From Flavobacteriales bacterium (lineage in GTDB: Bacteria; Bacteroidota; Bacteroidia; Flavobacteriales_F; PHOS-HE28), in assembly GCA_019638115.1 (NCBI GenBank), contig JAHBUK010000002.1, positions 5,867-69,866 on the forward strand: 64,000 bases of DNA, given 5' to 3'. Position 1 is the first letter of the stretch, and each line of letters starts with the position of its first letter. Below are positions 1,070 to 18,992 of the stretch, piece by piece. Made by a program: the position numbers and the translations under genes. The notes beneath the pieces were generated by a model. It was not told the DNA's origin. It did not search any database and saw nothing but the letters and a program-made list of their open reading frames with translations.

Positions 1070-3391
1070 ATGCATTGGAAGTACGCCCTCCCGGCCCTCG
1101 CCCTCATCGCCATCTGCACGACCGCCCTCGCCCAGGACTCCCCCCGCTACGGACGCGACAAGTTCCGCCAGCTGGAATGGGAACTGCCCACGCCCAACAC
1201 CTATCGCACGGCCAGCGGCGCACCCGGCCACCAGTACTGGCAGCAGAAGGCCGACTACGACATCCGCGTGGAGCTCGACGACGACAAGCAGACCATCACC
1301 GGCAGCGAGACCGTCACCTACTACAACTACAGTCCCGACAAGCTCGATTACCTCTGGATCCAACTGGACCAGAACATGCGCGCCAAGGACAGTGACAGCC
1401 ACAAGATCCGCACGGGCACCCTCAGCGATTCCATGTCGGTGGAACAGCTGGCCCGCATGGTGGACGTGTTCGACGGTGGCTTCCGCATCACCAAGGTCAC
1501 CGATGCCAGCGGCAAGGCGCTGAAGTACACCATCAACAAGACCATGATGCGCATCGACCTGCCGCGCACCTTGGCGCCCAACGCCTCCTACAGCTTCAAG
1601 ATCGATTGGTGGTACCCCATCAACGACCGCATGAAGTACGGCGGCCGCTCGGGCATGGAGTACTTCGAGGAGGACGGCAACTACATCTACACCATCGCGC
1701 AGTTCTTCCCGCGCATGGCCCTTTACGCCGACTATCAGGGCTGGCAGCACAAGCAGTTCCTCGGCCAGGGCGAGTTCACCCTCACCTTTGGCGACTACAA
1801 GGTGGCCATCACCGTGCCGAGCGACCACATCGTCACCGCCACCGGCACGCTGCAGAACGAAAGTGCCGTGCTCACCGCCACCCAACGCGAACGCCTTGGC
1901 CGCGCCCGCATGGCCCGTGAACCGGTGATGATCGTGACCGAAGCCGAGGCCCGCGAAGCCGAAAAGAAGAAGGCCACCGGCAAGAAAACGTGGGTCTTCC
2001 AAGCGAAGAACGTGCGCGACTTCGCCTTCGCCAGCAGCCGCAAGTTCATCTGGGACGGCATGAACCAGCCCGTGGGCGGCAACAACGTGCTGTGCATGAG
2101 CCTCTATCCCAAGGAGGGCAATCCGCTGTGGGAGCGGTACAGCACCAAGGTGGTGGCCCACACCGTGAAGACCTACAGCAAGTACACGGTGGATTACCCG
2201 TACCCCGTGTGCATCAGCGTACACACCGACCGCATCGGCATGGAGTACCCCATGCTCAGCTTCAACGGCGGGCGGCCGGAGAAGGACGGCACCTACAGCG
2301 AACGCACCAAGTACGGCATGATCGGCGTGATCATCCACGAGGTAGGGCACACCTTCTTCCCGATGATCATCAACAGCGACGAGCGGCAGTGGACTTGGAT
2401 GGACGAGGGCCTGAACACCTTCGTGCAGTACCTCACCGAGCAGGAGTGGGACCACGACTACCCCAGCCGCCGCGGGCCCGCACGCCACATCGTGGACTAC
2501 ATGAAGGGCGACAAGAGCGGCATTGAGCCCATCATGACCAACAGCGAGAGCATCACCCAGTTCGGCAACAACGCATACGGAAAGCCCGCCACCGCGCTCA
2601 ACATCCTGCGCGAAACGGTGATGGGTCGCGAGCTCTTCGACCACGCCTTCAAGACCTACTGCGAGCGCTGGAAGTTCAAGCACCCCACGCCGGCCGACTT
2701 CTTCCGCACCATGGAGGACGCCAGCGCCGTGGACCTTGACTGGTTCTGGCGCGGCTGGTTCTTCACCACCGACCATGTGGACATCGCCCTCACCAACCTG
2801 CGCTACATGCAGGTAAAGCCGCTTGACCCCAAGGCCCGTGAAGAACTCGCCCGCAGCGACCGCGCCGCGCAGCCACGTGAACTGGGCAACGAGCGCAACC
2901 GCGAAGCCTTCGAGACCGTGGTGATGCGCGACCCCGCCACCCGCGACTTCTACAACAGCTACGACCCGCTCACCGCCACGCCACGCATGCAGGAGGCCTA
3001 CGACCGCATGATGGCGCGCCTCACGCCCGATGAGAAAGCCCTGCTGGAGCGCGACCTGCACTTCTACGAGCTCAGCTTCGAGAACATCGGTGGGCTGGTG
3101 ATGCCGCTGATCCTGGAGTGGACCTACGCCGATGGCAGCACCGAGATCGAGCGCATCCCCGCCGAGATCTGGAAGACCAGCGACCGCATCAGCAAGGTCT
3201 TCATCAAGGAGAAGGAAGCTACCGGCGTGGTGCTCGATCCCTTCCTGGAGACCGCCGATACCGACCTGAACAACAACGCCTGGCCTCCGAGGATGGCGCC
3301 GACAAGGTTCGATGTGTTCAAGCGCGGGGAGTGGAGGGGTGGAAGGCCGAATCCCATGCAGGAGGGGCAGGGAGCGGGGAGCGGGCGCTGA
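1070..3391 (+). CDS. M1 family zinc metallopeptidase (aminopeptidase N-like), secreted
   Basis: It has the signal peptide MHWKYALPALALIAICTTALAQD. It has the HEVGH...(18 aa)...E zincin motif (IIHEVGHTFFPMIINSDERQWTWMDEGLNTF). It is about 773 aa. Confidence 0.85.
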   Translation: MHWKYALPALALIAICTTALAQDSPRYGRDKFRQLEWELPTPNTYRTASGAPGHQYWQQKADYDIRVELDDDKQTITGSETVTYYNYSPDKLDYLWIQLDQNMRAKDSDSHKIRTGTLSDSMSVEQLARMVDVFDGGFRITKVTDASGKALKYTINKTMMRIDLPRTLAPNASYSFKIDWWYPINDRMKYGGRSGMEYFEEDGNYIYTIAQFFPRMALYADYQGWQHKQFLGQGEFTLTFGDYKVAITVPSDHIVTATGTLQNESAVLTATQRERLGRARMAREPVMIVTEAEAREAEKKKATGKKTWVFQAKNVRDFAFASSRKFIWDGMNQPVGGNNVLCMSLYPKEGNPLWERYSTKVVAHTVKTYSKYTVDYPYPVCISVHTDRIGMEYPMLSFNGGRPEKDGTYSERTKYGMIGVIIHEVGHTFFPMIINSDERQWTWMDEGLNTFVQYLTEQEWDHDYPSRRGPARHIVDYMKGDKSGIEPIMTNSESITQFGNNAYGKPATALNILRETVMGRELFDHAFKTYCERWKFKHPTPADFFRTMEDASAVDLDWFWRGWFFTTDHVDIALTNLRYMQVKPLDPKAREELARSDRAAQPRELGNERNREAFETVVMRDPATRDFYNSYDPLTATPRMQEAYDRMMARLTPDEKALLERDLHFYELSFENIGGLVMPLILEWTYADGSTEIERIPAEIWKTSDRISKVFIKEKEATGVVLDPFLETADTDLNNNAWPPRMAPTRFDVFKRGEWRGGRPNPMQEGQGAGSGR

Positions 3392-3624
3392 GCGCAATAA
3401 GCACCTGATGGACGAAGCCGGGCTGCTGCCACAGTGGTACGCCCATCAGGACCAACGGCTGTGGGAGGAGCTGGAGGCATGGGTGGAGGAACACGGCCTG
3501 AAGCTGGCCGAAGGGTGAAGCCGAGCCGGTCCCCGGACGCTTGAGCGCTGCGCACGGCCGGATGCCGATCCATTGGGATGGGCCGGTCATGGTCCATGAT
3601 ACCCCAGCAATAACAGGCACTTTG

Positions 3625-3678
3625 GAAGAACCGCAGCCAAATGTGCCATCTGAAGCACACATTTGGCTGCGGATAACC
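3625..3678. repeat. hairpin repeat copy 1 (stem ccgcagccaaatgtgcc / ggcacatttggctgcgg)
   Basis: This is a perfect roughly 18-bp inverted repeat with a roughly 14-nt loop. Three copies share the stem sequence. Confidence 0.75.
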
Positions 3679-3840
3679 ACGGCCGGCGGATGGGTGAAAG
3701 GGCGAGCGCATGCTGCTGGTAAGGCATGCTGGGGGAATGCCCGGCACGAACGATGCTCCAAAGCCGACCGATGGCCGGACAGGCATTGCGGACCATCCAT
3801 ATATCTGGGTTCGTAAGTGCTTGTATTTATTGGGTGTTCA

Positions 3841-3893
3841 GAAGAACCGCAGCCAAATGTGCCATCATGAGCATACATTTGGCTGCGGATAAA
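3841..3893. repeat. hairpin repeat copy 2, immediately upstream of ATPase gene
   Basis: gaagaaccgcagccaaatgtgccatcatgagcatacatttggctgcggataaaag is near-identical to copy 1. Confidence 0.75.
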
Positions 3894-3906
3894 AGACTTG
3901 CACATC

Positions 3907-5322
3907 ATGCTTATCGGCCGGGAAGAGGAGCGCGACATTCTCCTGGATGCCTTGTCATCCGGGCATTCCGAGCTGATCGCCATCTATGGAAGACGGCGCA
4001 TCGGCAAGACTTACCTGATCCGCGAAGTGTATGCCGGCAAGGTGGACTTCGAGTTCTCGGGCATGCACCGGGGCACGCTCCGGCAGCAGCTCAAGAACTT
4101 CCACCTGGTGCTGCCCGCACGGCTGCGCAAGGGTGGCCCGCCCACCGACTGGCTGGATGCCTTCGCGCTCCTGGGGCGCTACATCGACGGACTTCGAAGC
4201 AAGCGGAAGAAGGTGCTCTTCATCGATGAGTTCCCATGGCTGGACACTCACCGGAGCGGTTTCCTGGCCGCCTTCAGCCACTTCTGGAACGGCTACTGCA
4301 GCAAGCGGAAGGACATCGTGGTGGTGATCTGCGGGTCGGCGGCCAGCTACATGGTGCAGCGCGTGGTGAACAACAAGGGCGGACTGCACAACCGGCTTAC
4401 ACGGCGGATCCGACTGGCACCCTTCAACCTGCGCGAGACGGAGCAAATGCTGCAACACAGGAAGGTGCGGTTCACACGCTACGATATCATACATCTGTAC
4501 ATGGCGCTCGGCGGAGTGCCCTACTATCTGCAACTGCTGAAACGGGGCGAAAGCATGGCCCAGGCCGTCGACCGGCTGTGCTTCCAGCCGCAGGGCTTCC
4601 TGCGTGGAGAGTTCCACAACGTGTTCGCCTCGCTGTTCGACCATGCCGGCAACCACGAGGCCATCGTACGTGCATTGGCCGGTGTGCGCAAGGGCCTCAC
4701 ACGCACCGCCATCCTGCGCAAGAGCAAGGTGTCGTCTGGTGGCACCCTCACCAAGACGCTCAGTGAACTGGAGGAGTCGGGCTTCATAGAGAAGTATGTG
4801 CCCTACGATGCGAAGAAGGACCCGTTGTACCGCATAACGGATGAGTACACGCAGTTCTACCTGCGCCATGTGGAGGGCGGCAAACCGGTAAGGCGCGCCT
4901 ACTGGGCAAAGGAGATGGGTACACCAGCTTATCGGGCTTGGAGCGGATTCACCTTCGAGACCATCTGCATGAAGCATGTGGAGCAGATCAAGGCGGCGCT
5001 GGGCATCCAGGGTGTGCGCTCCACGGAGGGTAGTTGGATCGGCAAGGGCGATGAAAGCGGTGCACAGGTGGATCTGCTCATAGACCGCGACGACAACGTG
5101 ATCAACCTCTGTGAGATGAAGTTCGCGAACGGGCCCTTCACCATCGACAAGAAGTATGCGAAGGACCTGATGGCCAAGAGCGAGGCATTCCGTTCATCCA
5201 CGCGTTCGAGGAAGAGCATCTTCATCACTTTCGTAACCACCCATGGTGTGGCTCAGAACGCGTACAGCAGCCAGTTGGTGCAGAACGATGTGCGCATGGA
5301 GGCTCTTTTCGAGGAGTATTAA
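3907..5322 (+). CDS. AAA family ATPase (Arch_ATPase/ATPase_2 + DUF234-type ATP-binding protein)
   Basis: It has Walker A GRRRIGKT and Walker B VLFIDEF. The overall architecture matches the widespread 'ATP-binding protein' PF01637+PF03008 family. A TTG start at 3898 is an alternative. Confidence 0.8.
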   Translation: MLIGREEERDILLDALSSGHSELIAIYGRRRIGKTYLIREVYAGKVDFEFSGMHRGTLRQQLKNFHLVLPARLRKGGPPTDWLDAFALLGRYIDGLRSKRKKVLFIDEFPWLDTHRSGFLAAFSHFWNGYCSKRKDIVVVICGSAASYMVQRVVNNKGGLHNRLTRRIRLAPFNLRETEQMLQHRKVRFTRYDIIHLYMALGGVPYYLQLLKRGESMAQAVDRLCFQPQGFLRGEFHNVFASLFDHAGNHEAIVRALAGVRKGLTRTAILRKSKVSSGGTLTKTLSELEESGFIEKYVPYDAKKDPLYRITDEYTQFYLRHVEGGKPVRRAYWAKEMGTPAYRAWSGFTFETICMKHVEQIKAALGIQGVRSTEGSWIGKGDESGAQVDLLIDRDDNVINLCEMKFANGPFTIDKKYAKDLMAKSEAFRSSTRSRKSIFITFVTTHGVAQNAYSSQLVQNDVRMEALFEEY

Positions 5323-5368
5323 CCGCAGCCAAATGTGGCATTCAAGAGGCACATTTGGCTGCGGTTAA
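5321..5368. repeat. hairpin repeat copy 3, overlapping ATPase stop codon; lies between convergent genes
   Basis: aaccgcagccaaatgtggcattcaagaggcacatttggctgcggtt has the same stem family. It likely acts as a bidirectional terminator. Confidence 0.7.
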
Positions 5369-5410
5369 TTGGAATGCCATGCGGCACGAGGATTGGTAAA
5401 ATGCGTTTCC

Positions 5411-6274
5411 TTAGCCCACCACCCACAAAACTCCCTTCTCCAGCCGGAACCGCACTTCATGCCCGATCTCCATCGGCTCGCCATCCAGGTGGGCCAGCGT
5501 ACCGCCCTGCTTCACGTACGCGTTGGTGGCCGGGATGTTGAGCAGGTTGGGGTTGCTGTCCGCGCGGTGGGTGTACACGTCGTAGAAGGCCTTCACCAGT
5601 TGGAAGAACGGTGGCTTACGGACAAGGCGCAATTCCGCGATGCCATCGTCAGGCTTGGAAGAAGGGCTTATGTCCGCGCCATTGCCGAACTCGCGGGTGT
5701 TGCAGAACACGAGCATCAGCACATCTTCCTTGATCGTTTTGCCATCCACGGTCAGTTCAATGGGCATGGGGGGCGTACCGAAGATGTCCTGCACGGTGAT
5801 GCGCGCATAGGTGAACATGCCGCGCGTGCGGCTCTTGTCGAACTTGTCCGCCACACGCGCATCGAAGCCGATGCCTGCGGTGCCGAGGAAGGGATGCTCG
5901 TTGAGGTAGCAGACATCCATGCGTTTGGGTGTTCCGCTGAAGGCGTGGCGCAATGCAGGCTCGGGCTTCAGGGGCAGGCCGATGGAGCGCGCATAACCGT
6001 TGCCACTGCCCATGGCCACGATACCCAGCGCCACGTTGGTGCCGATGAGGCCTGCGGCGATGGCGTTGTTGGTACCATCGCCACCTACGCTGATCACGCG
6101 TTCGCAACCGCTCGCAACGGCCTCCTTCGCCAGGGCGGTGCCGTGTCCCGGTCCTTCCACGGTGCGGATGTCGAGTTGCACCCCCATTTCCGCAGCAATG
6201 CGTTCGGCAAGGGCACGCACCGTAAGCGCCTGCTTCTTCCCCGAGCGGGGATTCATCACCAGCATCGCTTTCAT
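5411..6274 (-). CDS. diacylglycerol kinase catalytic-domain lipid kinase (YegS/DagK family)
   Basis: It has the MKAMLVMNPRSGKK N-terminus and the GGDGT motif (VISVGGDGTNNAIAAGL). Its start overlaps the stop of the upstream LtaS-like gene. Confidence 0.8.
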   Translation of the reverse strand: MKAMLVMNPRSGKKQALTVRALAERIAAEMGVQLDIRTVEGPGHGTALAKEAVASGCERVISVGGDGTNNAIAAGLIGTNVALGIVAMGSGNGYARSIGLPLKPEPALRHAFSGTPKRMDVCYLNEHPFLGTAGIGFDARVADKFDKSRTRGMFTYARITVQDIFGTPPMPIELTVDGKTIKEDVLMLVFCNTREFGNGADISPSSKPDDGIAELRLVRKPPFFQLVKAFYDVYTHRADSNPNLLNIPATNAYVKQGGTLAHLDGEPMEIGHEVRFRLEKGVLWVVG

Positions 6275-8181
6275 TCCGAAGCGGGTTGTGCCACCAACGC
6301 GCCGCGCATCAGGTGGTGGTTGAATTGTTGGATGGCGGCTTTCAAGCGTTGCTCCAGGTTGGTGGCCATGGCCGTACGTGCCTCTTCGCTCAGTGTGTCG
6401 TCGATCATGCGCTGGTCCACCACACGTTCTCCATCGAATTGCAGTTGCATGTGCGCGTTGGTGATGGAGTAGATGCCGTTGGCCGACCAGATGGCCACGC
6501 CCTGATGCGTGTTGCGCAGGGCGCTGCTGCCGAAGCTGAACACGGGTCGTTGCTGCCCTGTGAGATCGAGCACTGTGGGCAGGATGTCGATGTGCTGGGT
6601 GACCGCATCGCGCGCTTCGCCCACCAAGGGGTTGGGATGCTCCGATACTGCAACACCAGGTGCGTAGTAGAGTAGCGGCACCCAGTAGTCGATCGGCAGG
6701 TCGCCGTGTGCACCGGTGCGTTCCAGATCGGCGGTATGGTCGGCGGTGATCACGAACAAGGTGTTGGCATACCAAGGCATGGTGCGCGCCGTGGCGAAGA
6801 ACTGGCGCAGCGCATCATCGGTGTAGCGCAACGTGGGGTGGATGGCCTGTGTGCCTCCTGCGAAACGTTCGGCCTCTTCCTTGGGCAGGCGGTAGGGGTG
6901 GTGGCTGCTCAGTGTGAACACCGTGCTGAGGAAGGGTTCCTGTTCCTTGGCCAACTCTTGCGCCCAGAACTGCAGGAAGGGCCGGTCGCGGATGCCCCAG
7001 TTGCCATCGTAGTCCTCCTTACCGTTGGGGTATTCATCCATGCCCACATAGCGCTGGAAGCCCGCCGAGCGCGTGAAACCATCGAAGCCCATGGTGCCAT
7101 TGCGTCCCCCGTGGTAGAAGCTGGTGTGGTAGCCATCGGCCGCGAAAACACTGGCCAGTGAGGTGAAAGGGATGCTGGCGTAGCGGGAGGTGAGGAAGGC
7201 CTCGTCCATCAGTTCGGGCATGCTGGCGAGGATGGCCGGCACGCCGTCGATGCTGCGGCGCCCGTTGGCATAGGCCCGGGTGAAATTGAGGCTGTGGCCC
7301 ATCAGGGAATCAAGGAAGGGCATGTAGCCCTCGCCGCCCGAAAGGGTGCCGCTGTAAGCTGCGGAGAAGCTTTCCAGGATGATGACCACGACGTTGGGCT
7401 TGCGAGTGGAGGCCGTGTACTCGAAGGGCTGGTGCTCCCTGTTGGGCTGATGCACCACGGGCCACAGGCGATCGGCTTCCTCACGGGGCATGTAGATGCG
7501 CTCCTCCAAGCTGGGCTTGCCGATGCTCATGAGCATGGTGTAGGGCGTGTTGAGCACCACGGGCAGGTTGGCGGCCCCGCCATATCGCGCGCCATCCAAG
7601 GGTTGCAGCGGAATGAGCTGGGTGCCCCCCCGCGAGGCCAGTACCACCAACGCAATGGCAAGCACCCGCCAGCCGATCCGCCAGGGTAGTTTGATCGTGT
7701 CCCCCTTATCCAAGCGTCCGATGCGGCGGTAGCCCCAGGCCACAAGTACCATGGCCACTGCGAAGGCCAGCAGCAGGTACCAGTAGTCGCGCAGGAAGGC
7801 CGGGACCAGGTTGAGCATGTCGCCACCGGCCCCGATGATGTTGAAGAGGTCGCTGGTGCTGCGCTTGAGGGTGAAGGCGTAATAGCCGACATCCACGGTG
7901 TTGAGGAGAAGCCCCAAGGCGCTGGCAACCAGGAAGAAGGCCAGTTGGATGCGTTCCATGCCGGTGCCGGGGCGTGGGGAGAACAGCACCAGCAGCAGCC
8001 AAGGCAGGTACAACCATGCGATGGCGAACAGGTCGAAGCGCATGCCGCCGAGGTATGCCGTGAGCGGCACATCGGGGAAGAGTGCGGCATTGTGCCACAC
8101 GAAGAGCAGGCGCAGCAGGGTGTACAGCGCGGCCACCAGCCCCAGTCGGAGCAGCAGTACGGACAGGGGACCGACGCGCAT
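6271..8181 (-). CDS. LTA synthase family protein / sulfatase (alkaline-phosphatase superfamily, N-terminal polytopic membrane domain)
   Basis: It has about five N-terminal TM helices, then a sulfatase-like domain (VVVIILESFSAAYSG, SSHHPY, ITADHT). I chose the start at MRVGPLSVLLL. The longer ORF to 8529 looks like non-coding leader. Confidence 0.75.
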   Translation of the reverse strand: MRVGPLSVLLLRLGLVAALYTLLRLLFVWHNAALFPDVPLTAYLGGMRFDLFAIAWLYLPWLLLVLFSPRPGTGMERIQLAFFLVASALGLLLNTVDVGYYAFTLKRSTSDLFNIIGAGGDMLNLVPAFLRDYWYLLLAFAVAMVLVAWGYRRIGRLDKGDTIKLPWRIGWRVLAIALVVLASRGGTQLIPLQPLDGARYGGAANLPVVLNTPYTMLMSIGKPSLEERIYMPREEADRLWPVVHQPNREHQPFEYTASTRKPNVVVIILESFSAAYSGTLSGGEGYMPFLDSLMGHSLNFTRAYANGRRSIDGVPAILASMPELMDEAFLTSRYASIPFTSLASVFAADGYHTSFYHGGRNGTMGFDGFTRSAGFQRYVGMDEYPNGKEDYDGNWGIRDRPFLQFWAQELAKEQEPFLSTVFTLSSHHPYRLPKEEAERFAGGTQAIHPTLRYTDDALRQFFATARTMPWYANTLFVITADHTADLERTGAHGDLPIDYWVPLLYYAPGVAVSEHPNPLVGEARDAVTQHIDILPTVLDLTGQQRPVFSFGSSALRNTHQGVAIWSANGIYSITNAHMQLQFDGERVVDQRMIDDTLSEEARTAMATNLEQRLKAAIQQFNHHLMRGALVAQPASE

Positions 8182-8623
8182 GGCGGCGAAGATCGGCACA
8201 AGGTGCCGATCGTAGGGGCGGACGATCGTCCGCCCGCCGCCATACACCAGAAAGACGATCGTTCGCCCGCCGCAGTGCGCAGGACCAAGCCGTAACACCA
8301 CATTCAGCAGCAAGATGTAAGCACGAACGTGGGCCCCGCGCCCGGGATGGAAGCGGCGGCTGGCCGTAGGACGGGCCATGGCAGGGCGTGGAGCGAGGAG
8401 GCCCCGACGGTAGGAGGGGACCCCGGAGCCCCGCCATGCCAGGACCGGACAAGGACACCACAGCGGACAGCCCGATAAGGCGCCCCGAGCAACATCCACA
8501 ACCCGGTGCTGGTATCTGTGCTGTACCAAGCGAGTTGCAGATGTAACGCAGATACCTTTGCCGCACCATTCGGATACCGAAGATCATTTTCTGATCTTCT
8601 GATCGTCCGATCATCTGATCGAC

Positions 8624-10675
8624 ATGTCCCTCGAAGCCACCGAAAAACGCCAGCTCACCTACGAGCGCGGCAACCACAGCGACGCTTTCCTCATCAGCAC
8701 CTACGAGAAGCTGGTGTACCCGCGCATCATCGAAGAGAAGATGCTGAGCCTGCTGCGGCAGGGCAAGATCAGCAAGTGGTTCAGCGGCATCGGGCAGGAG
8801 GCCATCGCCGTGGGCGCCACCATGGCCCTGCAGGACGACGAGTACATCCTGCCCATGCACCGCAATCTGGGCGTATTCACCACGCGGGGCATGCCTTTCC
8901 GCAAGCTGTTCGCGCAGTGGCAGGGCAAGGCCACGGGCTACAGCAAGGGCCGCGAGCGAAGCTTCCACTTCGGCAGCCAGGAGCACAAGGTGGTGGGCAT
9001 GATCAGCCACCTTGGGCCGCAGATGGGCATCGCCGATGGCATCGCGCTGGCCCACAAGCTTAAGAAGGAGAACCGCTGCACCATCGTCTTCACCGGCGAT
9101 GGCGCCACGAGCGAGGGCGATTTCCACGAGAGCGTGAACGTGGCGGCGGTGTGGGACCTGCCCGTGCTGTTCATCATTGAGAACAACGGCTACGGACTGA
9201 GCACGCCCAGCAGCGAGCAGTTCCGCATGAAGCAGTTCACCGACAAGGCCATCGGCTATGGCATCGAAACGGTACAACTGGCGGGCAACAACATCTTGGA
9301 GGTGTACGACGCCCTGGCGTGGTGGGCCAACAGCGTGCGCGAGAACCCGCGTCCGGTGCTGATCGAATGCATGACCTTCCGCATGCGCGGTCACGAAGAG
9401 GCCAGCGGCACCAAGTACGTTCCCAAAGAGCTGTTCGAGGAGTGGGGCAGGAAGGATCCCGTGGCCAACTACGAGAATTGGCTGGTGGCGACGGGTGTGC
9501 TGACCATTGCCCAGAAGGACGAGATCCGTGCGCGGCTGAAGGACGGCATCGAAGCCGATCTGAAGGTGGCGTTCGAGGAGCCGGAACCGGTGCCGGTGGA
9601 AACCGCTGAGGTTGGGGACGTGTATGCAAATTCCGCCACTGGCCTATTGCCGCTGGCTACTGGCCCCTTGGAGGATCGGGCCAGTAGCCAGCAGCCAATA
9701 GCCATTGGCGAGTCCCGCGAGATCAGAATGATCGACGCCATCCAGGAAGGCATGCGTCAAAGCATGGAACGCCACCCGGAATTGGTGCTGATGGGCCAGG
9801 ACATCGCCGAGTACGGCGGGGCCTTCAAGATCACGGACGGTTTCGTGGAGAAGTTCGGCAAGGACCGGGTGCGCAATACGCCGCTGTGCGAGAGCGCCAT
9901 CCTGGGTGCGGCGCTGGGCCTCAGCATCAAGGGCATGAAGGCCATGATGGAGATGCAGTTCGCCGATTTCGTGAGCGAGGGTATGACCCAGATCTGCAAC
10001 AACCTGGCGAAGATCCATTACCGCTGGGGGCAGCACGCCGATGTGGTGGTGCGCATGCCCACTGGCGCCGGAGTGGGGGCGGGGCCCTTCCACAGCCAGA
10101 GCAACGAGATGTGGTTCGTGAAGACGCCCGGCCTGAAGGTGGTGTACCCCAGCAACCCCTACGACGCCAAGGGCCTGCTGATGACCGCCTTCGACGACCC
10201 GAACCCGGTGATGTTCTTCGAGCACAAAGCGATGTACCGCAGTATCAGCGGACCGGTGCCTGAGCAGCCGTACAGCATACCCTTCGGCAAGGCGCGGGTG
10301 GTGCGCGAGGGCAGCGACCTGAGCATCATCACATACGGAATGGGTGTGCATTGGGCGACGGCCGTGCAGGAGGAGACGGGCATCAGCATGGACATCATCG
10401 ACCTGCGTACGCTCGTACCCTTGGACGTGGAGACCATCCTCGCCAGCGTGAAGAAGACCGGTAAGGTGCTGCTGCTGCACGAGGACACACTGACCGCCGG
10501 TTTCGGTGGCGAGCTGGCGGCCATCATCGCAGAGCAGGCCTTCGAGTACCTGGATGCCCCGATCATGCGTGTGGCCAGCTGGGATACGCCGGTGCCCTTC
10601 GCGGTGCCGTTGGAGCAGGGTTTCCTGCCGAAGGGACGGTTGAGGGAGGCGGTGGAACGGTTGGCGGGGTATTAG
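8624..10675 (+). CDS. fused alpha/beta E1 component of a 2-oxoacid (pyruvate/branched-chain) dehydrogenase, TPP-dependent
   Basis: The N-terminal half is E1-alpha-like (TPP motif region GDGATSEGDFHESVN). The C-terminal half is E1-beta-like (LVLMGQDIAEYGGAFKIT..., FEHKAMYR). This fusion is common in Bacteroidota. Confidence 0.85.
   Translation: MSLEATEKRQLTYERGNHSDAFLISTYEKLVYPRIIEEKMLSLLRQGKISKWFSGIGQEAIAVGATMALQDDEYILPMHRNLGVFTTRGMPFRKLFAQWQGKATGYSKGRERSFHFGSQEHKVVGMISHLGPQMGIADGIALAHKLKKENRCTIVFTGDGATSEGDFHESVNVAAVWDLPVLFIIENNGYGLSTPSSEQFRMKQFTDKAIGYGIETVQLAGNNILEVYDALAWWANSVRENPRPVLIECMTFRMRGHEEASGTKYVPKELFEEWGRKDPVANYENWLVATGVLTIAQKDEIRARLKDGIEADLKVAFEEPEPVPVETAEVGDVYANSATGLLPLATGPLEDRASSQQPIAIGESREIRMIDAIQEGMRQSMERHPELVLMGQDIAEYGGAFKITDGFVEKFGKDRVRNTPLCESAILGAALGLSIKGMKAMMEMQFADFVSEGMTQICNNLAKIHYRWGQHADVVVRMPTGAGVGAGPFHSQSNEMWFVKTPGLKVVYPSNPYDAKGLLMTAFDDPNPVMFFEHKAMYRSISGPVPEQPYSIPFGKARVVREGSDLSIITYGMGVHWATAVQEETGISMDIIDLRTLVPLDVETILASVKKTGKVLLLHEDTLTAGFGGELAAIIAEQAFEYLDAPIMRVASWDTPVPFAVPLEQGFLPKGRLREAVERLAGY
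9635..9708. repeat. imperfect ~30-bp inverted repeat (hairpin) located in-frame in the E1 alpha-beta linker
   Basis: ccactggcctattgccgctggctactggcc ... ggccagtagccagcagccaatagccattgg encodes the linker TGLLPLATGPLEDRASSQQPIAIG. Confidence 0.65.
10601..10675. repeat. direct repeat copy 1 (native 3' end of E1 gene)
   Basis: The 75 bp gcggtgccgttggagcagggtttcctgccgaagggacggttgagggaggcggtggaacggttggcggggtattag is repeated about 90% identical at 11225-11299. Confidence 0.8.
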
Positions 10676-10691
10676 GTCGCTGATCGGCATC

Positions 10692-10716
10692 CCACTGCCG
10701 GTGATCGTGGCACCGG
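10692..10716 (+). terminator. hairpin just downstream of E1 stop (9-bp perfect stem ctgccggtg/caccggcag), no T-run
   Basis: It was seen directly. The function is inferred. Confidence 0.3.
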
Positions 10717-10850
10717 CAGCGTCGACTAGGCTGACCGACCGATGGTGATGGACGCGATCAACCTCCTACCACCACATTTTCGGCCGGGACCTTTTCCATC
10801 GAATGCTTCCGTGATTTGTGACACGCCCTTCCCATGAATAGTTTCGCTCC

Positions 10851-11189
10851 ATGCCTTTGGACGTGGACTCTCTGATAGAACGCGGTCTGACCCTGAAAAG
10901 GGAAGGCGGCAGTGGACGTCAGCTCAGTGAATTCCTCGAGCGTGAAGGCGCTGATGAAGGAGCCCGCCGCTTCATCCTGCGGCAGATCGACAAGCGGTTG
11001 CTGAAGGAGCACCAAGCCAAGGGTTCGGGGATGTACCAAAGCATGAAGGGATTCCTGGGCTTCGGGTTGATGGCGGGCGGAGCGCTACTGGGGTGGTTCC
11101 TATGGGCGGGGATCGACGGCTGGAACGTAATCAGCACAGTGCCCTTCATCATGTTCGGAGCAGGTCTGTGGGTGCTGAATTCGAAGTAG
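10851..11189 (+). CDS. hypothetical small membrane protein (soluble N-terminal ~65 aa + two C-terminal TM helices)
   Basis: The ORF has the hydrophobic stretches GFLGFGLMAGGALLGWFLWAGI and VISTVPFIMFGAGLWVL. It lies inside the segment bounded by the E1 3'-end duplication. Confidence 0.5.
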   Translation: MPLDVDSLIERGLTLKREGGSGRQLSEFLEREGADEGARRFILRQIDKRLLKEHQAKGSGMYQSMKGFLGFGLMAGGALLGWFLWAGIDGWNVISTVPFIMFGAGLWVLNSK

Positions 11190-11224
11190 GGGAGATTCTC
11201 TAGGGTATCTGCAGTCGTGCTTAG

Positions 11225-11299
11225 CGGTGCCGTTGGAGTAGGGGTTCCTGGCGAAGGGAAGGTTGAGGGAGGGGGTGGGACGGTTGGCGGGGTATTGAA
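11225..11299. repeat. direct repeat copy 2 (diverged duplicate of E1 gene 3' end)
   Basis: gcggtgccgttggagtaggggttcctggcgaagggaaggttgagggagggggtgggacggttggcggggtattga has about 8 mismatches versus copy 1. Confidence 0.8.
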
Positions 11300-11324
11300 T
11301 GCATGTAAAAAGTTTGAGGACGAC

Positions 11325-12044
11325 ATGAAGAACGGCGCAGTCCTTTTATTGGATGTCCTAGGATGGAAGGGCATATGGCTCCGAAGGTCTGATGCTATTG
11401 AAGCAATGCTGCAACTGGTTGCTAGTTGTCGGGATGCAATATCTTCTTTTTCGGGTGATAAGGTAATGGGGGATAGGTTTTCCGGATTAAGGGTTGAAGT
11501 GCTTACAATATCAGATACTATTGCAATTACTTGCCATGGTGAATTAGATGAATCTGTCGAACTACTTTCTTATGTGGGAAACTATTTAATCATTAATGGA
11601 ATAGGGTGTCATTTGCCGCTGCGAGGTGCGTTAAGTTATGGTCTTTTTAAGTCTTCGAGTAACGTGTTGTTGGGACCTGCGGTAGATGAGGTAGCATCTT
11701 GGTATGAAAATTCAGAATGGATTGGGGGATTCTTAACACCTTCAGCTTCCTTGAAAGTGAATATCGATAATTTTGTTTATCCTCATCTGTTGGTTCGCCA
11801 TGATGTTCCAACGAAAAATGGCACGTACAAAAATGGATTGTGCTTGAACTGGCCTATTGTTTGGGCATCAGAAGAGAATGCTGTAGAGGCTAGGGATAGA
11901 TTCATTTCTCATATCCTGAATTTAGGTCCATCTATGCCCGAAGTATATTCAAAGCTTAGTAATACGATTGATTTTTATGATAAAAATTCCACTCCGGATA
12001 GGGAGAATTTTTCCGAGCTAAAGGACCGGTTTGAAGATAGTTAG
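11325..12044 (+). CDS. standalone class III nucleotidyl cyclase-like (adenylate/guanylate cyclase - GGDEF palm fold) protein, AT-rich foreign gene
   Basis: The coding region is about 40% GC, against a background near 64%. Its motifs align to the class III AC catalytic domain. LLLDVLGWKG matches F.DIVGFT with metal Asp 1. FSGDKVMG matches FVGDAIM with metal Asp 2. GIGCHLPLRGALSYGLF matches GIH.G.AVVGLFG. LGPAVDEVASWYE matches IGPSVNIAARLQE, but with Asn to Asp and Arg to Trp substitutions. Confidence 0.55.
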   Translation: MKNGAVLLLDVLGWKGIWLRRSDAIEAMLQLVASCRDAISSFSGDKVMGDRFSGLRVEVLTISDTIAITCHGELDESVELLSYVGNYLIINGIGCHLPLRGALSYGLFKSSSNVLLGPAVDEVASWYENSEWIGGFLTPSASLKVNIDNFVYPHLLVRHDVPTKNGTYKNGLCLNWPIVWASEENAVEARDRFISHILNLGPSMPEVYSKLSNTIDFYDKNSTPDRENFSELKDRFEDS

Positions 12045-12133
12045 AATTGGAATGTCTGCCTGCCCATTCTTCGTGCTCTTGCCCGATCTATTCGGACCGG
12101 CGGACACGCGCTGCGCAACGTTCTAGGCATGAC

Positions 12134-12361
12134 CTAATTCGCAGGAAGGATCAGCTCATCCAACTTCTTCACCTTCTTCATCACTTTCCCATCCTTGTTC
12201 ACCATCACCAACCATCCATCGCGCTCCACCATGATGGTCTTGCGCACTGAGAACGCCTGCCGCTCCGCGCGCTTCATAGCCGTCTTAAAGGCCTTGGCCA
12301 TGGCTTCACCTTCAGCACTGGGTTTCTTGCGGGTGATGATGGTGGTCTTCTTCACTGGCAT
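12134..12361 (-). CDS. small conserved hypothetical protein (75 aa, lysine-rich)
   Basis: The ORF is MPVKKTTIITRKKPSAEGEAMAKAFKTAMKRAERQAFSV..., with native GC and no overlap with a better gene. Confidence 0.5.
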   Translation of the reverse strand: MPVKKTTIITRKKPSAEGEAMAKAFKTAMKRAERQAFSVRKTIMVERDGWLVMVNKDGKVMKKVKKLDELILPAN

Positions 12362-12432
12362 GCTTCAAAGTTAGCAGGCTCGGTAACGTTCAGTACACAC
12401 GCTCAGGTCGATATTTGTATGCAGAAGAAGCC

Positions 12433-12822
12433 ATGATCCCCATGCGCCCCATCCTCCCCATCCTTCTCGCGGCCCTCTCCCTCACCGCCTGCGTCAAACC
12501 CGACGACATCCACGAGGGCGACTACCACGTGGCCAACCACCTCAGCACCGGTCTGAAGGTCTACGCGGAGTACCGGAACCAGCCCGTGTCCTTGCTGCGT
12601 GACACCGTGCCGCCTGGTGATACGGTCCACATCCACCATGTGAAGGAAGGCAGCGGTGGCCACGTTTACCCCAGCAACTTCTTCTCGGTGTTCCGGATCA
12701 CCACGGTGGACAGCGGCGGTGCCGAGGTGATCGTCCATCAAGGGCTGGACCATCGGCCTTGGCGGACGTGGGATACTGGAACACAAGGCAAAGCGCTTCA
12801 ACTACTGCTGGTGGTGGAGTGA
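12433..12822 (+). CDS. hypothetical lipoprotein
   Basis: It has the lipobox-like signal MIPMRPILPILLAALSLTAC. Confidence 0.5.
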   Translation: MIPMRPILPILLAALSLTACVKPDDIHEGDYHVANHLSTGLKVYAEYRNQPVSLLRDTVPPGDTVHIHHVKEGSGGHVYPSNFFSVFRITTVDSGGAEVIVHQGLDHRPWRTWDTGTQGKALQLLLVVE

Positions 12823-12912
12823 GGCATGCATTTCACCGGCCCGGAAAGTTCCGGTCATCGGTTTTCCGTAGTTGGTCCGCTGGTAGCTTTGGACCACCTA
12901 AACCGCAATACC

Positions 12913-13806
12913 ATGAAACGTGTCCACCTGCTTCTGAGCTCCATGGCCCTGCTGCTGATGCTCGCTCCTTCCTGCGTGTCCAAGAAGAAGTACGCATCCT
13001 TGACCATGTCCAATGAAACACTCCGCAGCAAATTGGAAGAGTGCAACAGGGGAATGGACAAGTGCCGGGGAGACCTGAGCATAACGGAGGCCCGCCTGAG
13101 TGAGCTGCAGAACAAGAACCAGCACTTGGTGGACCAGGTGGCGCAGTTGAACAATACCAACGCCGCCCTGCTGAACAACGTGAGCCAGATGGCCACACTC
13201 TCCAAGCAGGAAGCCGTGAACCTGGAGAAGTCTTTGGAGCAGATCCGCGAACAGGACCTGCGCATCCGCCGCCTGCAAGACGCGATGAGCAAGAAGGACT
13301 CGGTGACCTTGGCCTTGGTGGTGAGCCTGAAAAGCTCGCTCGGCAACCTGAACGACACGGACGTGGTGGTGAACGTGGAGAAAAGCGTGGTCTTCATCTC
13401 GTTGAGCGACAAGATGCTCTTCCGCAGCGGCAGTACCGACCTAAGCCCACGTGCAAAGGAAGTGCTGGCCAAGGTGGCCACCGTGCTCAACGACAAGCCC
13501 GAAATGGAAGTGCTGGTGGAAGGCCACACGGACAATGTGCCCATTCGTAGGGACTGTTTCAAGGACAACTGGGACCTGAGCGCTGCACGTGCCACCACCA
13601 TAGCGCGCGTGTTGCAGACCGATTACAAGGTGGATCCCGCACGGATCACTGCTGGTGGTCGCAGCGAGTATGTGCCCTTGGTTCCGAACGATACCGCGGA
13701 CAACCGTTCCACGAACCGCCGCATCCGCATTGTGATCCTACCCAAGTTGGACCAGTTCTTCGGCATGATCGAGGATGGGCTGAAGCTGGCGGAAGGTCAG
13801 CAGTGA
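12913..13806 (+). CDS. OmpA/MotB family protein with N-terminal coiled coil
   Basis: It has a C-terminal OmpA-like domain (VVFISLSDKMLFRSGSTDLSPRAKEVL...VEGHTDNVPI...NRSTNRRIRIVI) and the signal peptide MKRVHLLLSSMALLLMLAPSC. Confidence 0.8.
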   Translation: MKRVHLLLSSMALLLMLAPSCVSKKKYASLTMSNETLRSKLEECNRGMDKCRGDLSITEARLSELQNKNQHLVDQVAQLNNTNAALLNNVSQMATLSKQEAVNLEKSLEQIREQDLRIRRLQDAMSKKDSVTLALVVSLKSSLGNLNDTDVVVNVEKSVVFISLSDKMLFRSGSTDLSPRAKEVLAKVATVLNDKPEMEVLVEGHTDNVPIRRDCFKDNWDLSAARATTIARVLQTDYKVDPARITAGGRSEYVPLVPNDTADNRSTNRRIRIVILPKLDQFFGMIEDGLKLAEGQQ

Positions 13807-13864
13807 TCAACGAGCCTGTTCATCCAGTGCCTGCTGAGGTGTCGTCGACCATTGCCAGGCTTCT

Positions 13865-14030
13865 GAGAGCCTGTTTAGTATCTCTTCAAACTCGTCCCCC
13901 GGTCTCTTTTCCGCCCATGCTTCGCCGAAAAATGATCCCGTAGGCACCGCTACGCGATGATTTTTCGGTTACGCCTGTACGAAAAACAGCCTCGGGGTCC
14001 ATCGTTCAAGAGATCCTAAACAGGCTCTGA
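13865..14030. repeat. nested inverted repeats in a 520-bp intergenic region (outer tgagagcctgtttag.atctctt.aaac arms ~110 bp apart; inner ccgaaaaatgatc/gatgatttttcgg)
   Basis: It was seen directly. It is a possible MITE remnant or a structured RNA. Confidence 0.4.
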
Positions 14031-14325
14031 ACGATGGTCTCCGTTTCCGACGCGGTCCGGTCATTGTGTTGCGCTTGCGCTGAGAGCATGCGATGGTAAG
14101 CTGCGGGAAGGTTCGATCGGTATCTGAGCGACATGACCTCGAAGCAACAGCCATGGGTGCAATGTGCTGAGGAGGCTTCGTGCGGCGGATTTCGGGAACC
14201 TGACCTCGTTGGAGTAACACGTGTTTCCGTTCGTTGGTCGGCGGTCCGGCCTGTGCGTATTGCCACTCGATCGTGAGCCTTGTTCCATAAGCCTACGTTC
14301 AGCACGCTTAGGTTTGCGCGCTCCC

Positions 14326-15303
14326 ATGCCCCAGCGTACCCATTTCCCTGGCATCTTGCTCGCCATGCTCATCGGTCTGGGCGGGTACTTCGGATCGGCG
14401 TACACTCCCGCTTGGCTCAACGGCATACTTCTGGCGCTGCTGTTGGGCATGGTGGTGGGCAACCTGCTGAAACTACCAGCGGTGGTCCAACCTGGTATCG
14501 GCTTCACCAGCAGCAAGCTCCTTGAGCTTTCGGTACTCTTCCTGGCCTTCAGTATCAACTACGGGCACATCACGCGGCTTGGCGCATCGTCCTTCAGCAT
14601 CGTGCTGATCATGGTGCTGGGCATGGTGTTCATCACCTACCACCTGGCCCGGCAGGTGCGCTGCCCCGGCAGCACGGGCTGGCTGGTGGGCTTCGGAACG
14701 GCCATCTGTGGCAGCAGCGCCATCGCCGCACTGGCGCCCCGCGTGGCGAAGAACAAGGATGATGTGGGCATCGCCATGGCCGTGGTTAACCTCTTCGGTA
14801 GCGTGGGCATGGTCGTGCTGCCGCTGGTGCTCGTGCGCTTCGACCTCAGCGATACCCAGCTCGGCATCCTCATCGGAGGTACGCTGCATAGCGTGGGCAA
14901 CGTGGTGGGCGCAGGCTACACCATCAGCGATGGCGTGGGCGAAGCGGCCACCACCATCAAGTTGGCGCGGGTGGCCATGCTCAGCCCGGCCTTGATCCTC
15001 TTCAACCTGCTGGTGGATCGTGATGAGTCGCAAGGCTGGCGCCAGCAGCTGCGTTTGCCTTGGTACCTCTGGGGCTTCATCGGCATCACGCTCCTGACCT
15101 CGGTCGTCACCCTGCCCGCAGAGCTGCTCCGCGCCGTGGACGTGGCGGGCAAGCTGGCGCTCACCATCGCCTTGGCGGCCATCGGCCTCAAGGTGAGCTT
15201 CGGCGAGCTGCTGGCCAGCGGCCGCAAGGGCTTGGGCTTCGGACTGATCGTGTTCGCCGTGCAGTTCGCACTGGTGGCGGGCTTGATGGTGCTGGTGGGG
15301 TAG
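14326..15303 (+). CDS. yeiH: YeiH/UPF0324 family putative sulfate exporter membrane protein
   Basis: It is polytopic, with the typical motifs GTAICGSSAIAA and LIGGTLHSVGNVVGAGY. Confidence 0.8.
   Translation: MPQRTHFPGILLAMLIGLGGYFGSAYTPAWLNGILLALLLGMVVGNLLKLPAVVQPGIGFTSSKLLELSVLFLAFSINYGHITRLGASSFSIVLIMVLGMVFITYHLARQVRCPGSTGWLVGFGTAICGSSAIAALAPRVAKNKDDVGIAMAVVNLFGSVGMVVLPLVLVRFDLSDTQLGILIGGTLHSVGNVVGAGYTISDGVGEAATTIKLARVAMLSPALILFNLLVDRDESQGWRQQLRLPWYLWGFIGITLLTSVVTLPAELLRAVDVAGKLALTIALAAIGLKVSFGELLASGRKGLGFGLIVFAVQFALVAGLMVLVG
15166..15303. repeat. direct repeat copy 1 (native 3' end of yeiH)
   Basis: The 138 bp atcgccttggcggccatcggcctcaaggtgagcttcggcgagctgctggccagcggccgcaagggcttgggcttcgg... 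is repeated at 16180-16316. Confidence 0.85.
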
Positions 15304-15528
15304 GGTGCAGGGCATCCGTTATCCGGGAGTGGTTCCCCGCCGCAGCGCCAAGGATGGTGAGTGGGAGCGGATCGCCCCCTGCGAACCTGTCTTTGCCCAA
15401 GGCGGACAGGTACGGGGTACGAGCAAGCCCCCCCATCCATCGCAGCAAGCCCTTCTGGAGCGACTTGACGAACTACAAGCGACCACCGCTTACCGACAGC
15501 TAATTGCCGCCGATCGCTCCCGCCACCC

Positions 15529-16071
15529 TCACTGCCCAAAGTGGTAGCCCACGGCCACGGTAAAAGACCAGGGCCGCTGCAGGATCTCCACGTCGGGGCG
15601 CTTGTCCAGGGCATCCAGGTCATCCTCGTATTCCGTGGGGCGCTGCGGGAAGATCACCTGCACGCTCCAGTAGCGCCGGGGCTGGCGAAGGCCATGGATC
15701 TCCAGCCCTATGCCGAAAGAGGTGCCGTAGTAGAGTTGGTTCTCCTCCGGCAGGCCCCGAACGGCGATGGCCGCATTGTAGCCGTACATGCCGGTGATCA
15801 GGGGACACACCCGCGAATTGGGCGATAAACGCAGGTTCATGCCCACGTTGTAGCCCAAGCCTGCCAGGGCATAGCCGCCTCCGGCAAAGAGCGCCACCGG
15901 CTGCCACGGACGCACCTGGAACTGCCCGCCCAAGCCACCGTAGGGTTGGCCGAAACCAATGCCAAAAACCCAAGCGGACGGCACGGCCTAGTAGCCGCTG
16001 GTGGCTTCCGCCAGCTCCTGGGCATGCAGCAGGCCGGGTGCCATGGCGAGGGTGAGGAGGAACTGGCGCAT
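15529..16071 (-). pseudogene. outer-membrane/secreted-like protein gene with in-frame TAG between signal peptide and mature domain
   Basis: The minus strand reads MRQFLLTLAMAPGLLHAQELAEATSGY-TAG-AVPSAWVFGIGFGQPYGGLGG... in one frame. It is intact only if it starts at an internal GTG, which would leave no signal peptide. Confidence 0.4.
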
Positions 16072-16179
16072 GCCTCGAATGTAGGTGCGTGAAGCGGCAT
16101 TTACAAGCGCTCCGACCGTCACCATGGACCGCTCCTCAACGCACCCGCCCTGCAGGGAGTGTAGGGCGCGCAACGGCCC

Positions 16180-16316
16180 ATCGCCTTGGCGGCCATCGGC
16201 CTCAAGGTGAGCTTCGGCGAGCTGCTGGCCAGCGGCCGCAAGGGCTTGGGCTTCGGGCTGATCGTGTTCGCCGTGCAATTCGCGCTGGTGGCGGTGCTGC
16301 TGGTGGCGCTGGGGTG
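16180..16316. repeat. direct repeat copy 2 (diverged duplicate of yeiH 3' end, reading frame preserved)
   Basis: The copy has about 10 substitutions, mostly synonymous or conservative in the yeiH frame, and ends in TGA instead of TAG. Confidence 0.85.
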
Positions 16317-16382
16317 AGCTTCGATCCGTAGGATGGCTTTTCTTTGAAAGGCGCAGCATCCCTAAAGCTGGGCAAGCAACAC

Positions 16383-17285
16383 ATGGTACGATCGATCTTG
16401 AGGGGCTTGTTGCTCATGCTCGTGCTACTCGTAGGCTTTGCGTTCTGGTTGTCTCCGCGTTTAGGCGGACTGATCGACCTGGGCAAGGAGTCCATCGAAA
16501 CCACCATCACTACCCTGAGCTTCGACTCACTCGGTACCGATGGCTACGAGCTCAATTATCCGGACCTGAGTGGTGAGCCTCATTTGGTGGAACTGCGTGA
16601 AACCTATCAGTTGGATACGCTGATCGGCTCGGCATCAAGCTCGCTTGAACAAGTGCTGGCCGTGCAGAGCTGGGTGCAAAGCAGATGGGAACACGATGGC
16701 GACAATTCAGCTGGTACATCGGATGCGATCGCTATTCTGCGGGCGGCAGAGCAAGGGCAACGTTTCCGCTGTGTGGAGTACAGCGTGGTCACCTCAGCCT
16801 GCTTGGCATCGCTGGGCTTCCGGGTCCGTGGTTTGGGCTTGATGACACGTGACATAGCGGAAGTACGTTCCGGCGGTGGTCATGCGGTCAATGAGGTCTA
16901 TCTGCCTGATCTGAAGCGTTGGGCATTTCTCGACCCACAGTACAATGTGATGGTGTTGCGCGATGGTGCTCCGCTGAATGCAGTACAGTTTCAGCATGCC
17001 ATTGCACATGGTATTCCGGTGGAACTTGTAGGCCCCAGCGGAGCCATCAGTACAGAAGATTACCTGAGCTGGGTGGGACCGTACCTCTACTACTTCTACG
17101 TTTCCCTGGATCGACAGTCCATCAGCATTTGGGACAGGGTGGTCGGCAACAAGAAGCAGCTGACGCTTTACCCGATCGGAGCGGATCGCCCTGCTACTTT
17201 CCAAGGCTTGATACGCTGGAACAACACCCATTACACCCACGCCGTACGGGATCTGTATCCCGTGGTGGAAGACCAAATTCGCTAA
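16383..17285 (+). CDS. transglutaminase-like cysteine peptidase superfamily protein
   Basis: It has a Cys-His-Asp arrangement (FRCVEYSVV; GGGHAVNEVY; AFLDPQ) and an N-terminal TM/signal MVRSILRGLLLMLVLLVGFAFWL. Confidence 0.65.
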   Translation: MVRSILRGLLLMLVLLVGFAFWLSPRLGGLIDLGKESIETTITTLSFDSLGTDGYELNYPDLSGEPHLVELRETYQLDTLIGSASSSLEQVLAVQSWVQSRWEHDGDNSAGTSDAIAILRAAEQGQRFRCVEYSVVTSACLASLGFRVRGLGLMTRDIAEVRSGGGHAVNEVYLPDLKRWAFLDPQYNVMVLRDGAPLNAVQFQHAIAHGIPVELVGPSGAISTEDYLSWVGPYLYYFYVSLDRQSISIWDRVVGNKKQLTLYPIGADRPATFQGLIRWNNTHYTHAVRDLYPVVEDQIR

Positions 17286-17665: not shown

Positions 17666-17710
17666 GGGTGCGAAGGTGGGGAAAGGGGCGAGGGGCGGAA
17701 TGGGCATAAA

Positions 17711-17882
17711 TGAAGAATGAAAAATGTAGAAGGAAAAATGATGAATGAAAGATGCCGGGACCAAGGTGGTGAGCTGAACGGGTCGGTGGATGGATGTCAG
17801 ACTTGGCTTGCGATGGACGGCGCCAGCTTCGCGGGTAGCAGTAGTCACAGTTCTACATTTTTCATTCTACATTTTTCATTGC
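17711..17882. repeat. composite palindromic element (gaatgaaaaatgtagaa arms / ttctacatttttcattc x2 inverted, ~95-bp GC-rich core)
   Basis: It was seen directly between ridA and surE. It has the same tandem-arm/core/inverted-arm architecture as the GTGGCGA elements. Confidence 0.65.
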
Positions 17883-18987: not shown

Positions 18988-18992
18988 AGGCC

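Follow-up and report, generated by a model that had tools for sequence, protein, structure and literature searches.

A duplicated E1 dehydrogenase gene end in a Flavobacteriales genome: probable footprint of homology-anchored recombination at a variable locus

Here we analyse a 64,000-nucleotide (nt) stretch of contig JAHBUK010000002.1 from a Flavobacteriales bacterium (GenBank assembly GCA_019638115.1), hereafter the window, in which a fused E1 alpha/beta 2-oxoacid dehydrogenase gene (E1; forward strand, 8624-10675, 683 aa, stop TAG; Pfam E1_dh, Transket_pyr and Transketolase_C) is followed by a partial second copy of its own 3' end. Comparison with related loci suggests that the upstream copy (copy 1) is the working end of the gene, and that the downstream copy, which we call psi, is the displaced and decaying original. 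We consider it probable that this arrangement arose by homology-anchored recombination, taking anchoring on the left and on the right flank together. Between the two we lean towards the left, that is, towards homology-guided recombination anchored in the conserved E1 gene, through which a block carrying a small two-transmembrane (2-TM) gene, TM2, would have entered a genome where E1 adjoined an AT-rich gene, AT239. An earlier, sequence-only annotation of the window (the original prediction) had instead read the duplicated gene end as the mark of site-specific integration by a decayed or minimal element that delivered foreign cargo.

Results

Extent and reality of the duplication

The 3' end of E1 at 10597-10673 recurs at 11220-11296 as a 77-nt repeat in which 70/77 positions (91%) are identical (blastn of the two E1-tail copies, E = 3.6e-23); the two copies lie 623 bp apart from start to start and are separated by 546 bp. 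When the whole window was scanned without gaps, the second copy scored 70/77 and the runner-up position 39/77, and in 50 shuffles of the sequence the best repeat score was 43/77. The stop codons fall outside the identical stretch, with TAG at 10673-10675 in copy 1 and TGA at 11296-11298 in psi. The duplication originally described as 75 bp at roughly 90% identity, with its second copy at 11225-11299, is thus real, although its coordinates were a few bases off and the stop does not belong to the shared sequence. A profile built from 11 E1 tails (nhmmer) found only these two copies in the window and one in the related locus L092, with no third copy bracketing the AT-rich gene.

Because an independent assembly reproduces both copies, the arrangement is genuine and not an artefact of the metagenome-assembled genome. 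Logan contig L081, from another sample (SRR29353002), is 100% identical to 8400-13895 and spans both copies, and Logan contig L082, from a third sample (SRR14782838), covers 9557-11220. The latter ends exactly at the first base of psi (window 11220), which could mean that the assembly graph of that sample branches between strains here, at the novel joint, or simply that coverage was low. The related loci used for comparison, of which about 90 were examined for E1-tail duplication, are single metagenome assemblies; chimeric assembly of these loci is unlikely because their joints do not fall at shared k-mers.

A displaced tail and its uninterrupted relative

Copy 1 (10597-10675, forward strand), which comprises the last 77 nt of functional E1 and the TAG stop, is intact and in frame and completes the E1 reading frame, ending in FAVPLEQGFLPKGRLREAVERLAGY. 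Psi (11220-11298, forward strand) differs from it at seven positions, one of them a nonsense change (CAG to TAG, giving an in-frame stop at 11239-11241 ahead of the terminal TGA), four missense and two synonymous. This pattern is that of an unconstrained fragment, and psi is a dead pseudogene relic that would no longer serve as a working attachment site. It ends in TAT TGA, and TGA is the stop in all 13 relatives' E1 tails examined, except for the functional E1 of L085 (TAA). Psi also retains the AGG arginine codon of the relatives, where copy 1 has CGG together with TAG; copy 1 departs from the relatives in one synonymous change and the stop codon only. Because psi shares both the TGA stop and the AGG codon with E1 of the relatives, it is probably the older of the two tails, whereas copy 1 would have come in or been rebuilt later. 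Identity of psi to the different E1 alleles did not discriminate the donor side: it matches the E1 tail of its own strain at 70/80 positions, as high as to any relative, and that of L092 at 64/80.

The layout without the insertion is found in L092, a 66-kb metagenome contig, and also in L093. There an intact single-copy E1 is followed, 26 nt past its stop, by an AT239 homologue (81% identity), and then by a gene that belongs to the conserved right flank of other relatives. Window positions 11230-12023 are collinear with L092 7906-8699 (75% nucleotide identity) through psi, the spacer and AT239, and this collinearity with an uninterrupted E1 suggests that psi is the leftover of an E1 gene that once adjoined AT239, with AT239, which lies outside the repeats, as the older neighbour. 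Relative to L092 the window has gained 623 bp, made up of a new E1 tail, a remnant of a repetitive extragenic palindromic (REP) region and TM2. The general scheme of the original prediction, with a rebuilt tail upstream, the original tail displaced downstream and an insertion visible against a relative, is therefore borne out by this comparison. Its empty site is not, since the expected order of E1 followed directly by the gene at 12134-12361 was not found, and in the actual empty site, that of L092, the gene next to E1 is the AT-rich one. That gene does indeed come after the second copy (11325-12044, 40.6% GC), but as an outside and older neighbour of E1 it does not fit the role of cargo delivered by the insertion. 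Species-representative genomes gave no downstream synteny beyond E1, and the tblastx output, which was mostly summed-statistics noise, was not used.

Origin of the bracketed segment

The DNA between the copies is not foreign, because both the segment at 10676-10726 and TM2 are homologous to E1-downstream DNA of relatives and its GC content is 58%, against about 61% for the window. The sequence past the copy 1 stop, TCGCTGATCGG..., corresponds to what natively follows E1 in relatives, with blastn homology past E1 extending to 10726 in L083 and to 10689 in L002. The segment at 10676-10726 (forward strand) is a remnant of a REP-type region, with hairpin stems at 10695-10703 and 10711-10719 (a 9-bp stem; DNA fold z = -1.9). 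In L083, L086/87, L090/91 and L005 a REP-type hairpin region and then a gene resembling REP-associated tyrosine transposases (RAYT; NCBIfam REP_Tyr_transpos, E = 5e-10, below the family cut-off) lie 3' of E1, and fragments of this order remain in L002 and L088. The succession E1-REP-RAYT is the canonical layout of the clade, with the RAYT-like gene as the ancestral neighbour of E1, and the window has lost it: we found no RAYT homologue in the window, and a search of its 64 kb for other copies of the REP consensus with <=3 mismatches gave 0 matches.

TM2 (10851-11189, forward strand, GC 58%) encodes 112 aa with hydrophobic segments at about residues 64-89 and 90-111, and is the sole gene between the copies; the claim that the copies bracket a 2-TM gene is accurate, the two segments being C-terminal. 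It has three homologues in a set of 5.8 billion proteins, two of them non-self at 71-74% identity, and both of these lie 0.2-1.7 kb downstream of E1, in L083 (E1-RAYT-Por_Secre_tail protein-TM2) and in L085 (E1-...-TM2). TM2 is a lineage-restricted accessory gene of this locus, and with a native-like REP remnant beside a lineage-typical gene that is found near E1 in L083 and L085, the notion of foreign cargo between the copies is not upheld. Homology to L083 and L085 extends no further than the stop codon of TM2, and E1 homology begins at 11220, the 30 nt in between (11190-11219, forward strand) ending at a novel joint, 11219|11220.

Recurrent insertion downstream of E1

E1 is the conserved left anchor of a variable locus. 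Its amino-acid identity to L001-L005, L083, L085, L092 and L097 is 82-90%, and its nucleotide identity among closer relatives is 81-88%, and in every comparison the likeness stops at or just past the stop codon. The cases have in common that strains cease to be alike at the E1 stop codon, the point at which any recombination anchored in E1 has to be resolved. Between E1 and the right flank there are 0 genes in L001 (an empty interval of 107 nt from E1 to the right-flank gene), 1 in L092, 4 plus psi in the window and 7 in L085, and the E1-downstream interval is a small accessory-gene hotspot in this Flavobacteriales clade.

A second case of the same kind is seen in L085 (E1 89% identical in amino acids), which has the order E1 (stop TAA), a 101-aa open reading frame (orf101), a 55-nt psi ending in TGA and an unrelated AT-rich 230-aa gene, c230 (40.5% GC). 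L097 carries an intact E1 and, 3 nt further on, a homologue of c230 (91% amino-acid identity), and L097 2235-3090 matches L085 6553-7409 at 92.8%; L097 thus appears to preserve the pre-insertion state of this second, independent case. L085 also carries a second relic, of 94 nt, which consists of the final 26 nt of p200, a convergent gene, and its downstream spacer. This relic on the right flank shows an import anchored on that side, so that both flanks have served as entry points. The TM2 copy of L085 is itself flanked by two diverged copies of the p200 end (7316-7409 and 7861-7954), of which the relic is 94% and the functional p200 79% identical to L097.

Two further arrangements involve the E1 tail. 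In L009 (E1 67% identical in amino acids) the E1 gene ends in a divergent 22-nt tail; an insert of two genes separates it from a 95-nt duplicate that is 99% identical and has the canonical tail. L089-L091 carry a tandem duplication of a 129-bp unit, made up of 53 nt from the E1 tail and 76 nt that include a REP hairpin, directly upstream of the RAYT-like gene. No other E1-tail duplication was found among the approximately 90 loci. The left boundaries lie at -77 in the window, -55 in L085, -53 in L089-L091 and -117 in L009, and short microhomologies are shared at the joints of L009 (GTG) and of the L090 tandem (CTG). The tandem unit occupies L090 8706-8963, L089 1-300 and, on the reverse strand, about L091 3105-3360, and its REP hairpin, GTAGCGTCGACCCTCAGGGTCGACCGCTAC, has a fold z of -3.4. 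In four lineages unrelated cargo starts 3-26 nt past the E1 stop (L092 7975-8711, L097 2289-2983, L085 6212-6536 and L009 8035-8855); two such cargo genes are single genes of 40-42% GC in genomes of about 60% GC, and GC-typical DNA resumes immediately after them.

Discussion

Proposed recombination anchored in E1 and its alternatives

In the scenario that we favour, the ancestor would have carried E1 with a TGA stop and AT239 about 25 nt later, as L092 still does, and the donor would have been a related strain with the other common layout (E1, REP region, ..., TM2), the two pairing through conserved E1. Two routes, both documented, are conceivable. The incoming fragment, with part of the homologous arm only, might have been circularised and integrated by one crossover within the E1 tail, a Campbell-type single crossover. 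Alternatively, a linear fragment might have paired in E1 and been sealed at its other, non-homologous end by an illegitimate joint some 77 nt ahead of the recipient stop, which would be homology-facilitated illegitimate recombination. Either route would give the order E1 body, new functional tail, REP remnant, TM2, novel joint, psi and AT239, after which selection would preserve the upstream tail and leave the downstream tail to decay. Both the direction of transfer and the enzymology, which would combine pairing of the RecA type with a single illegitimate joint, are inferred. E1 itself looks mosaic, with a linker type common to L090/L091 and flanks nearest to those of L083, L085 and L097, an appearance that would fit frequent exchange at the locus. 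Anchoring on the left explains better than anchoring on the right why the relics are always short and always beside a gene end, and the case would be a natural example of a known process, ordinary in kind.

Several points weigh against this scenario. The direct parental genomes were not found, so that the joint (11219|11220) could not be scored for microhomology against a donor. Sliding-window identity along E1 showed no clear switch except at the linker, so neither the crossover nor the donor side was located and there is no clear recombination breakpoint. The 77-nt duplication is shorter than those in experiments with E. coli. Moreover AT239, c230, orf101 and the L009 gene pair all begin 3-26 nt past the E1 stop, a precision that could hint at a targeted mechanism, and a recombinase encoded outside the 64-kb window might have acted in trans.

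The alternative that survives best is a mirror-image import, which we regard as unlikely. Here the resident would have been E1-REP-TM2-...-lipoprotein gene, and a fragment of a strain with E1-AT239-p75-lipoprotein gene would have been anchored on the right, by homology in the lipoprotein gene and further on, its left end chancing to lie 77 nt inside the donor E1 and joined illegitimately just after TM2; psi would then be the donor tail and AT239 the newcomer. This reading needs the same two parental layouts, both of which exist (the L092 type and the L083/L085 type). TM2 and the lipoprotein gene co-occur in L085, the AT239 block looks deviant beside the canonical E1-REP-RAYT layout of the clade, and the psi-c230-psi_p200 segment of L085 (857 nt, 93% identical to L097) is patch-like, being edged by short relics of both flanking genes. 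However, this would require that in three independent lineages the fragment happened to end somewhere in the final 55-117 nt of E1, and that in L085 it also ended no more than 26 nt from the end of the gene on the other flank. Moreover, as noted above, psi is as close to its own E1 tail as to that of any relative, and further from L092.

We consider it improbable that the segment is the minimal remnant of an integrative element, inserted site-specifically into the E1 3' end with a replacement tail by a tyrosine or serine recombinase that has been lost or acts in trans. Such an element would account for direct repeats that comprise a gene 3' end with the upstream copy functional and the downstream one a fragment, as in icd/icdC, for the empty site in L092 and for the left edge of very different cargo lying precisely at the E1 stop. 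However, Pfam searches of the called genes from 415 to 20219 (about 8 kb upstream and 9 kb downstream) found no integrase or transposase domain and housekeeping domains only, which agrees with the original statement that no integrase remains nearby, and the occupied E1 loci of relatives also contain no recombinase. The bracketed DNA is homologous to the E1-downstream DNA of relatives and has a typical GC content, the boundaries vary by lineage while the cargo is unrelated, and AT239 is not bracketed by a third copy. The 23-nt degenerate core of the repeat, sought as a possible attP, had no match among 2.9 million viral contigs, and its only matches in metagenome contigs were E1 loci. Around the segment we found no tRNA or tmRNA target, no known RNA family and no promoter or terminator consensus, and the E1 tail holds no remarkable hairpin or att-like structure (DNA fold z = -0.8 and -0.5).

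It is very improbable, though consistent with the precise spacing of the cargo genes and the repeated duplication of E1 tails, that the E1 stop is a dedicated landing site at which an undescribed, trans-acting cassette-capture system, possibly linked to REP/RAYT, rebuilds the tail of a conserved, well-expressed gene. Least credible of all is a by-product of REP/RAYT activity, in which an HUH tyrosine transposase or replication slippage at REP hairpins copied the E1 tail with adjacent DNA: relatives carry E1-REP-RAYT, the window keeps a REP remnant directly past copy 1 and the 129-bp tandem unit of L089-L091 sits just upstream of the RAYT gene, but the window has neither a RAYT gene nor another REP copy in 64 kb, the duplications of L085 and L009 have no REP at their joints, the E1 tail has no remarkable hairpin (z = -0.8, as above), and RAYTs are not known to mobilise DNA other than REPs.

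Relation to known systems

The closest parallel in form is the insertion of e14/phage 21 at E. coli icd, where, according to work citing Hill et al. 1989, the element supplies a substitute tail and the original is displaced as the icdC pseudogene fragment with few substitutions. As in our locus, the insertion is in the 3' end of a metabolic gene, a substitute tail is provided and a short tail fragment is displaced. However, e14, a prophage of 15 kb, encodes its own integrase and uses a fixed att site, whereas here we find 546 bp of native-like DNA, no recombinase and variable boundaries. Of the features expected from such a system, direct repeats and an unoccupied site are present in our data, whereas a recombinase, foreign content, fixed boundaries and an attP are not.

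In E. coli conjugation with a single homology arm, most recombinants had a duplication of 109-950 bp of the anchor flanking the insert, which the authors explained by one crossover involving a circular molecule (PMC3240628). Homology-facilitated illegitimate recombination and single-crossover events in Acinetobacter, S. pneumoniae, P. stutzeri and E. coli are similar to our case in having one anchor in a conserved gene and DNA added at the edge of the homology, and the locus shows both one-sided homology that ends at the insert and duplication of the anchor on both sides (77 nt). It differs from those laboratory events with engineered substrates in that the duplications are 53-117 nt, the donor would be a natural related strain and the process itself is inferred.

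Chromosomal accessory-gene hotspots flanked by core genes have reportedly been described by Oliveira, Touchon and Rocha in 2017 and in surveys of defence-island hotspots. The E1 interval resembles them in its 0-7 accessory genes, which are unrelated and partly AT-rich, but such surveys rarely resolve the joints, whereas here relics of both flanking genes record single events. As in REP/RAYT (REPIN) systems, a RAYT-like gene with flanking REP hairpins neighbours E1 in the clade, although the window has lost RAYT and the duplication takes in a complete gene along with coding sequence, which RAYTs are not known to transfer.

A duplicated gene 3' end alone is not the signature of an integrase-driven element, and our data warn against annotating such repeats as att sites, as the same footprint would be left when strains exchange alternative forms of a variable locus through homology in the conserved gene next to it. 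Public metagenomes supply the before and after states of two independent events, which makes them unusually clear natural instances of a process studied chiefly in laboratory transformation and conjugation experiments. The hotspot downstream of E1 also houses orphan genes with a possible role in defence, among them the cyclase-fold family of AT239. Were targeted capture nevertheless true, genes would be installed at the end of a conserved, well-expressed gene rather than arriving through chance events filtered by selection.

Other features of the locus

Within E1 the linker between the domains contains, at 9634-9710, an in-frame, near-perfect 77-nt hairpin with 33-nt arms, of the type common to L090/L091 and translated as ATGLLPLATGPLEDRASSQQPIAIG; its DNA fold energy is -31.4 kcal/mol (z = -6.1). 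Inserts in the linker were also noted in L083 (4746-4767), L085, L092, L097, L001 and L004; at this position most relatives other than L090/L091 have instead a REP hairpin identical to that beside the downstream RAYT gene, translated T(R/G)SVDPPGRP. REP-type elements that are tolerated in frame in a coding linker are reminiscent of Rickettsia palindromic elements. No second palindrome family was seen elsewhere in the window.

AT239 (239 aa; gene 11325-12044, forward strand) follows psi after a 25-nt spacer, and together they span 11299-12044; the GC content of the gene is 40.6% against 60.9% for the window, and no short repeats were seen flanking the AT-rich genes. The label "cyclase-like" given to it in the original prediction holds at the level of fold and not of family membership, as AT239 has no Pfam, NCBIfam or PADLOC match. 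Its AF2 model (pLDDT 88), for which the sequences of its homologues were used, found in the PDB with Foldseek Ma1120, CyaC, Rv1900c and sAC (E = 3e-5 to 1e-3, target-normalised TM-score <=0.69), the best matches being adenylyl cyclases at E ~3e-5, and this model supports a class III nucleotidyl-cyclase-like fold, that of adenylyl/guanylyl cyclase catalytic domains. D10 and D64 are invariant across an alignment of 13 AT239 homologues, where they lie within the motifs LLDVLGW and SISDT. The non-self homologues (n=12) are scattered: one comes from Flavobacteriales at 81%, and the rest, at 34-47%, from Paenibacillus and other Firmicutes and from short contigs of metagenomes. Plasmid matches were three and distant (31-34% identity; two Bacillus plasmids and one Fusobacterium record), their context being uninformative, and phages gave no match. 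AT239, L092 8001-8711 and L095 6001-6735 belong to an orphan family of proteins of 225-250 aa, whose Paenibacillus members sit among HTH_26, RES-like and caspase-like (Peptidase_C14) genes, a context that suggests a defence or stress island; PADLOC found no defence-system match for TM2, AT239 or p75.

To the right of AT239 the variable segment also holds a 75-aa lysine-rich open reading frame, p75 (12134-12361, reverse strand), which has no family match and whose GC of 53.5% is between that of AT239 and the genome average; tblastn across the fetched loci gave no match beyond the same strain. The conserved right flank starts at 12430 (12430-12822, forward strand) with a gene for a putative lipoprotein of 129 aa (12433-12822), and blastn aligns 12430-12820 with L085 9206-9596 at 79% identity (81% in amino acids).

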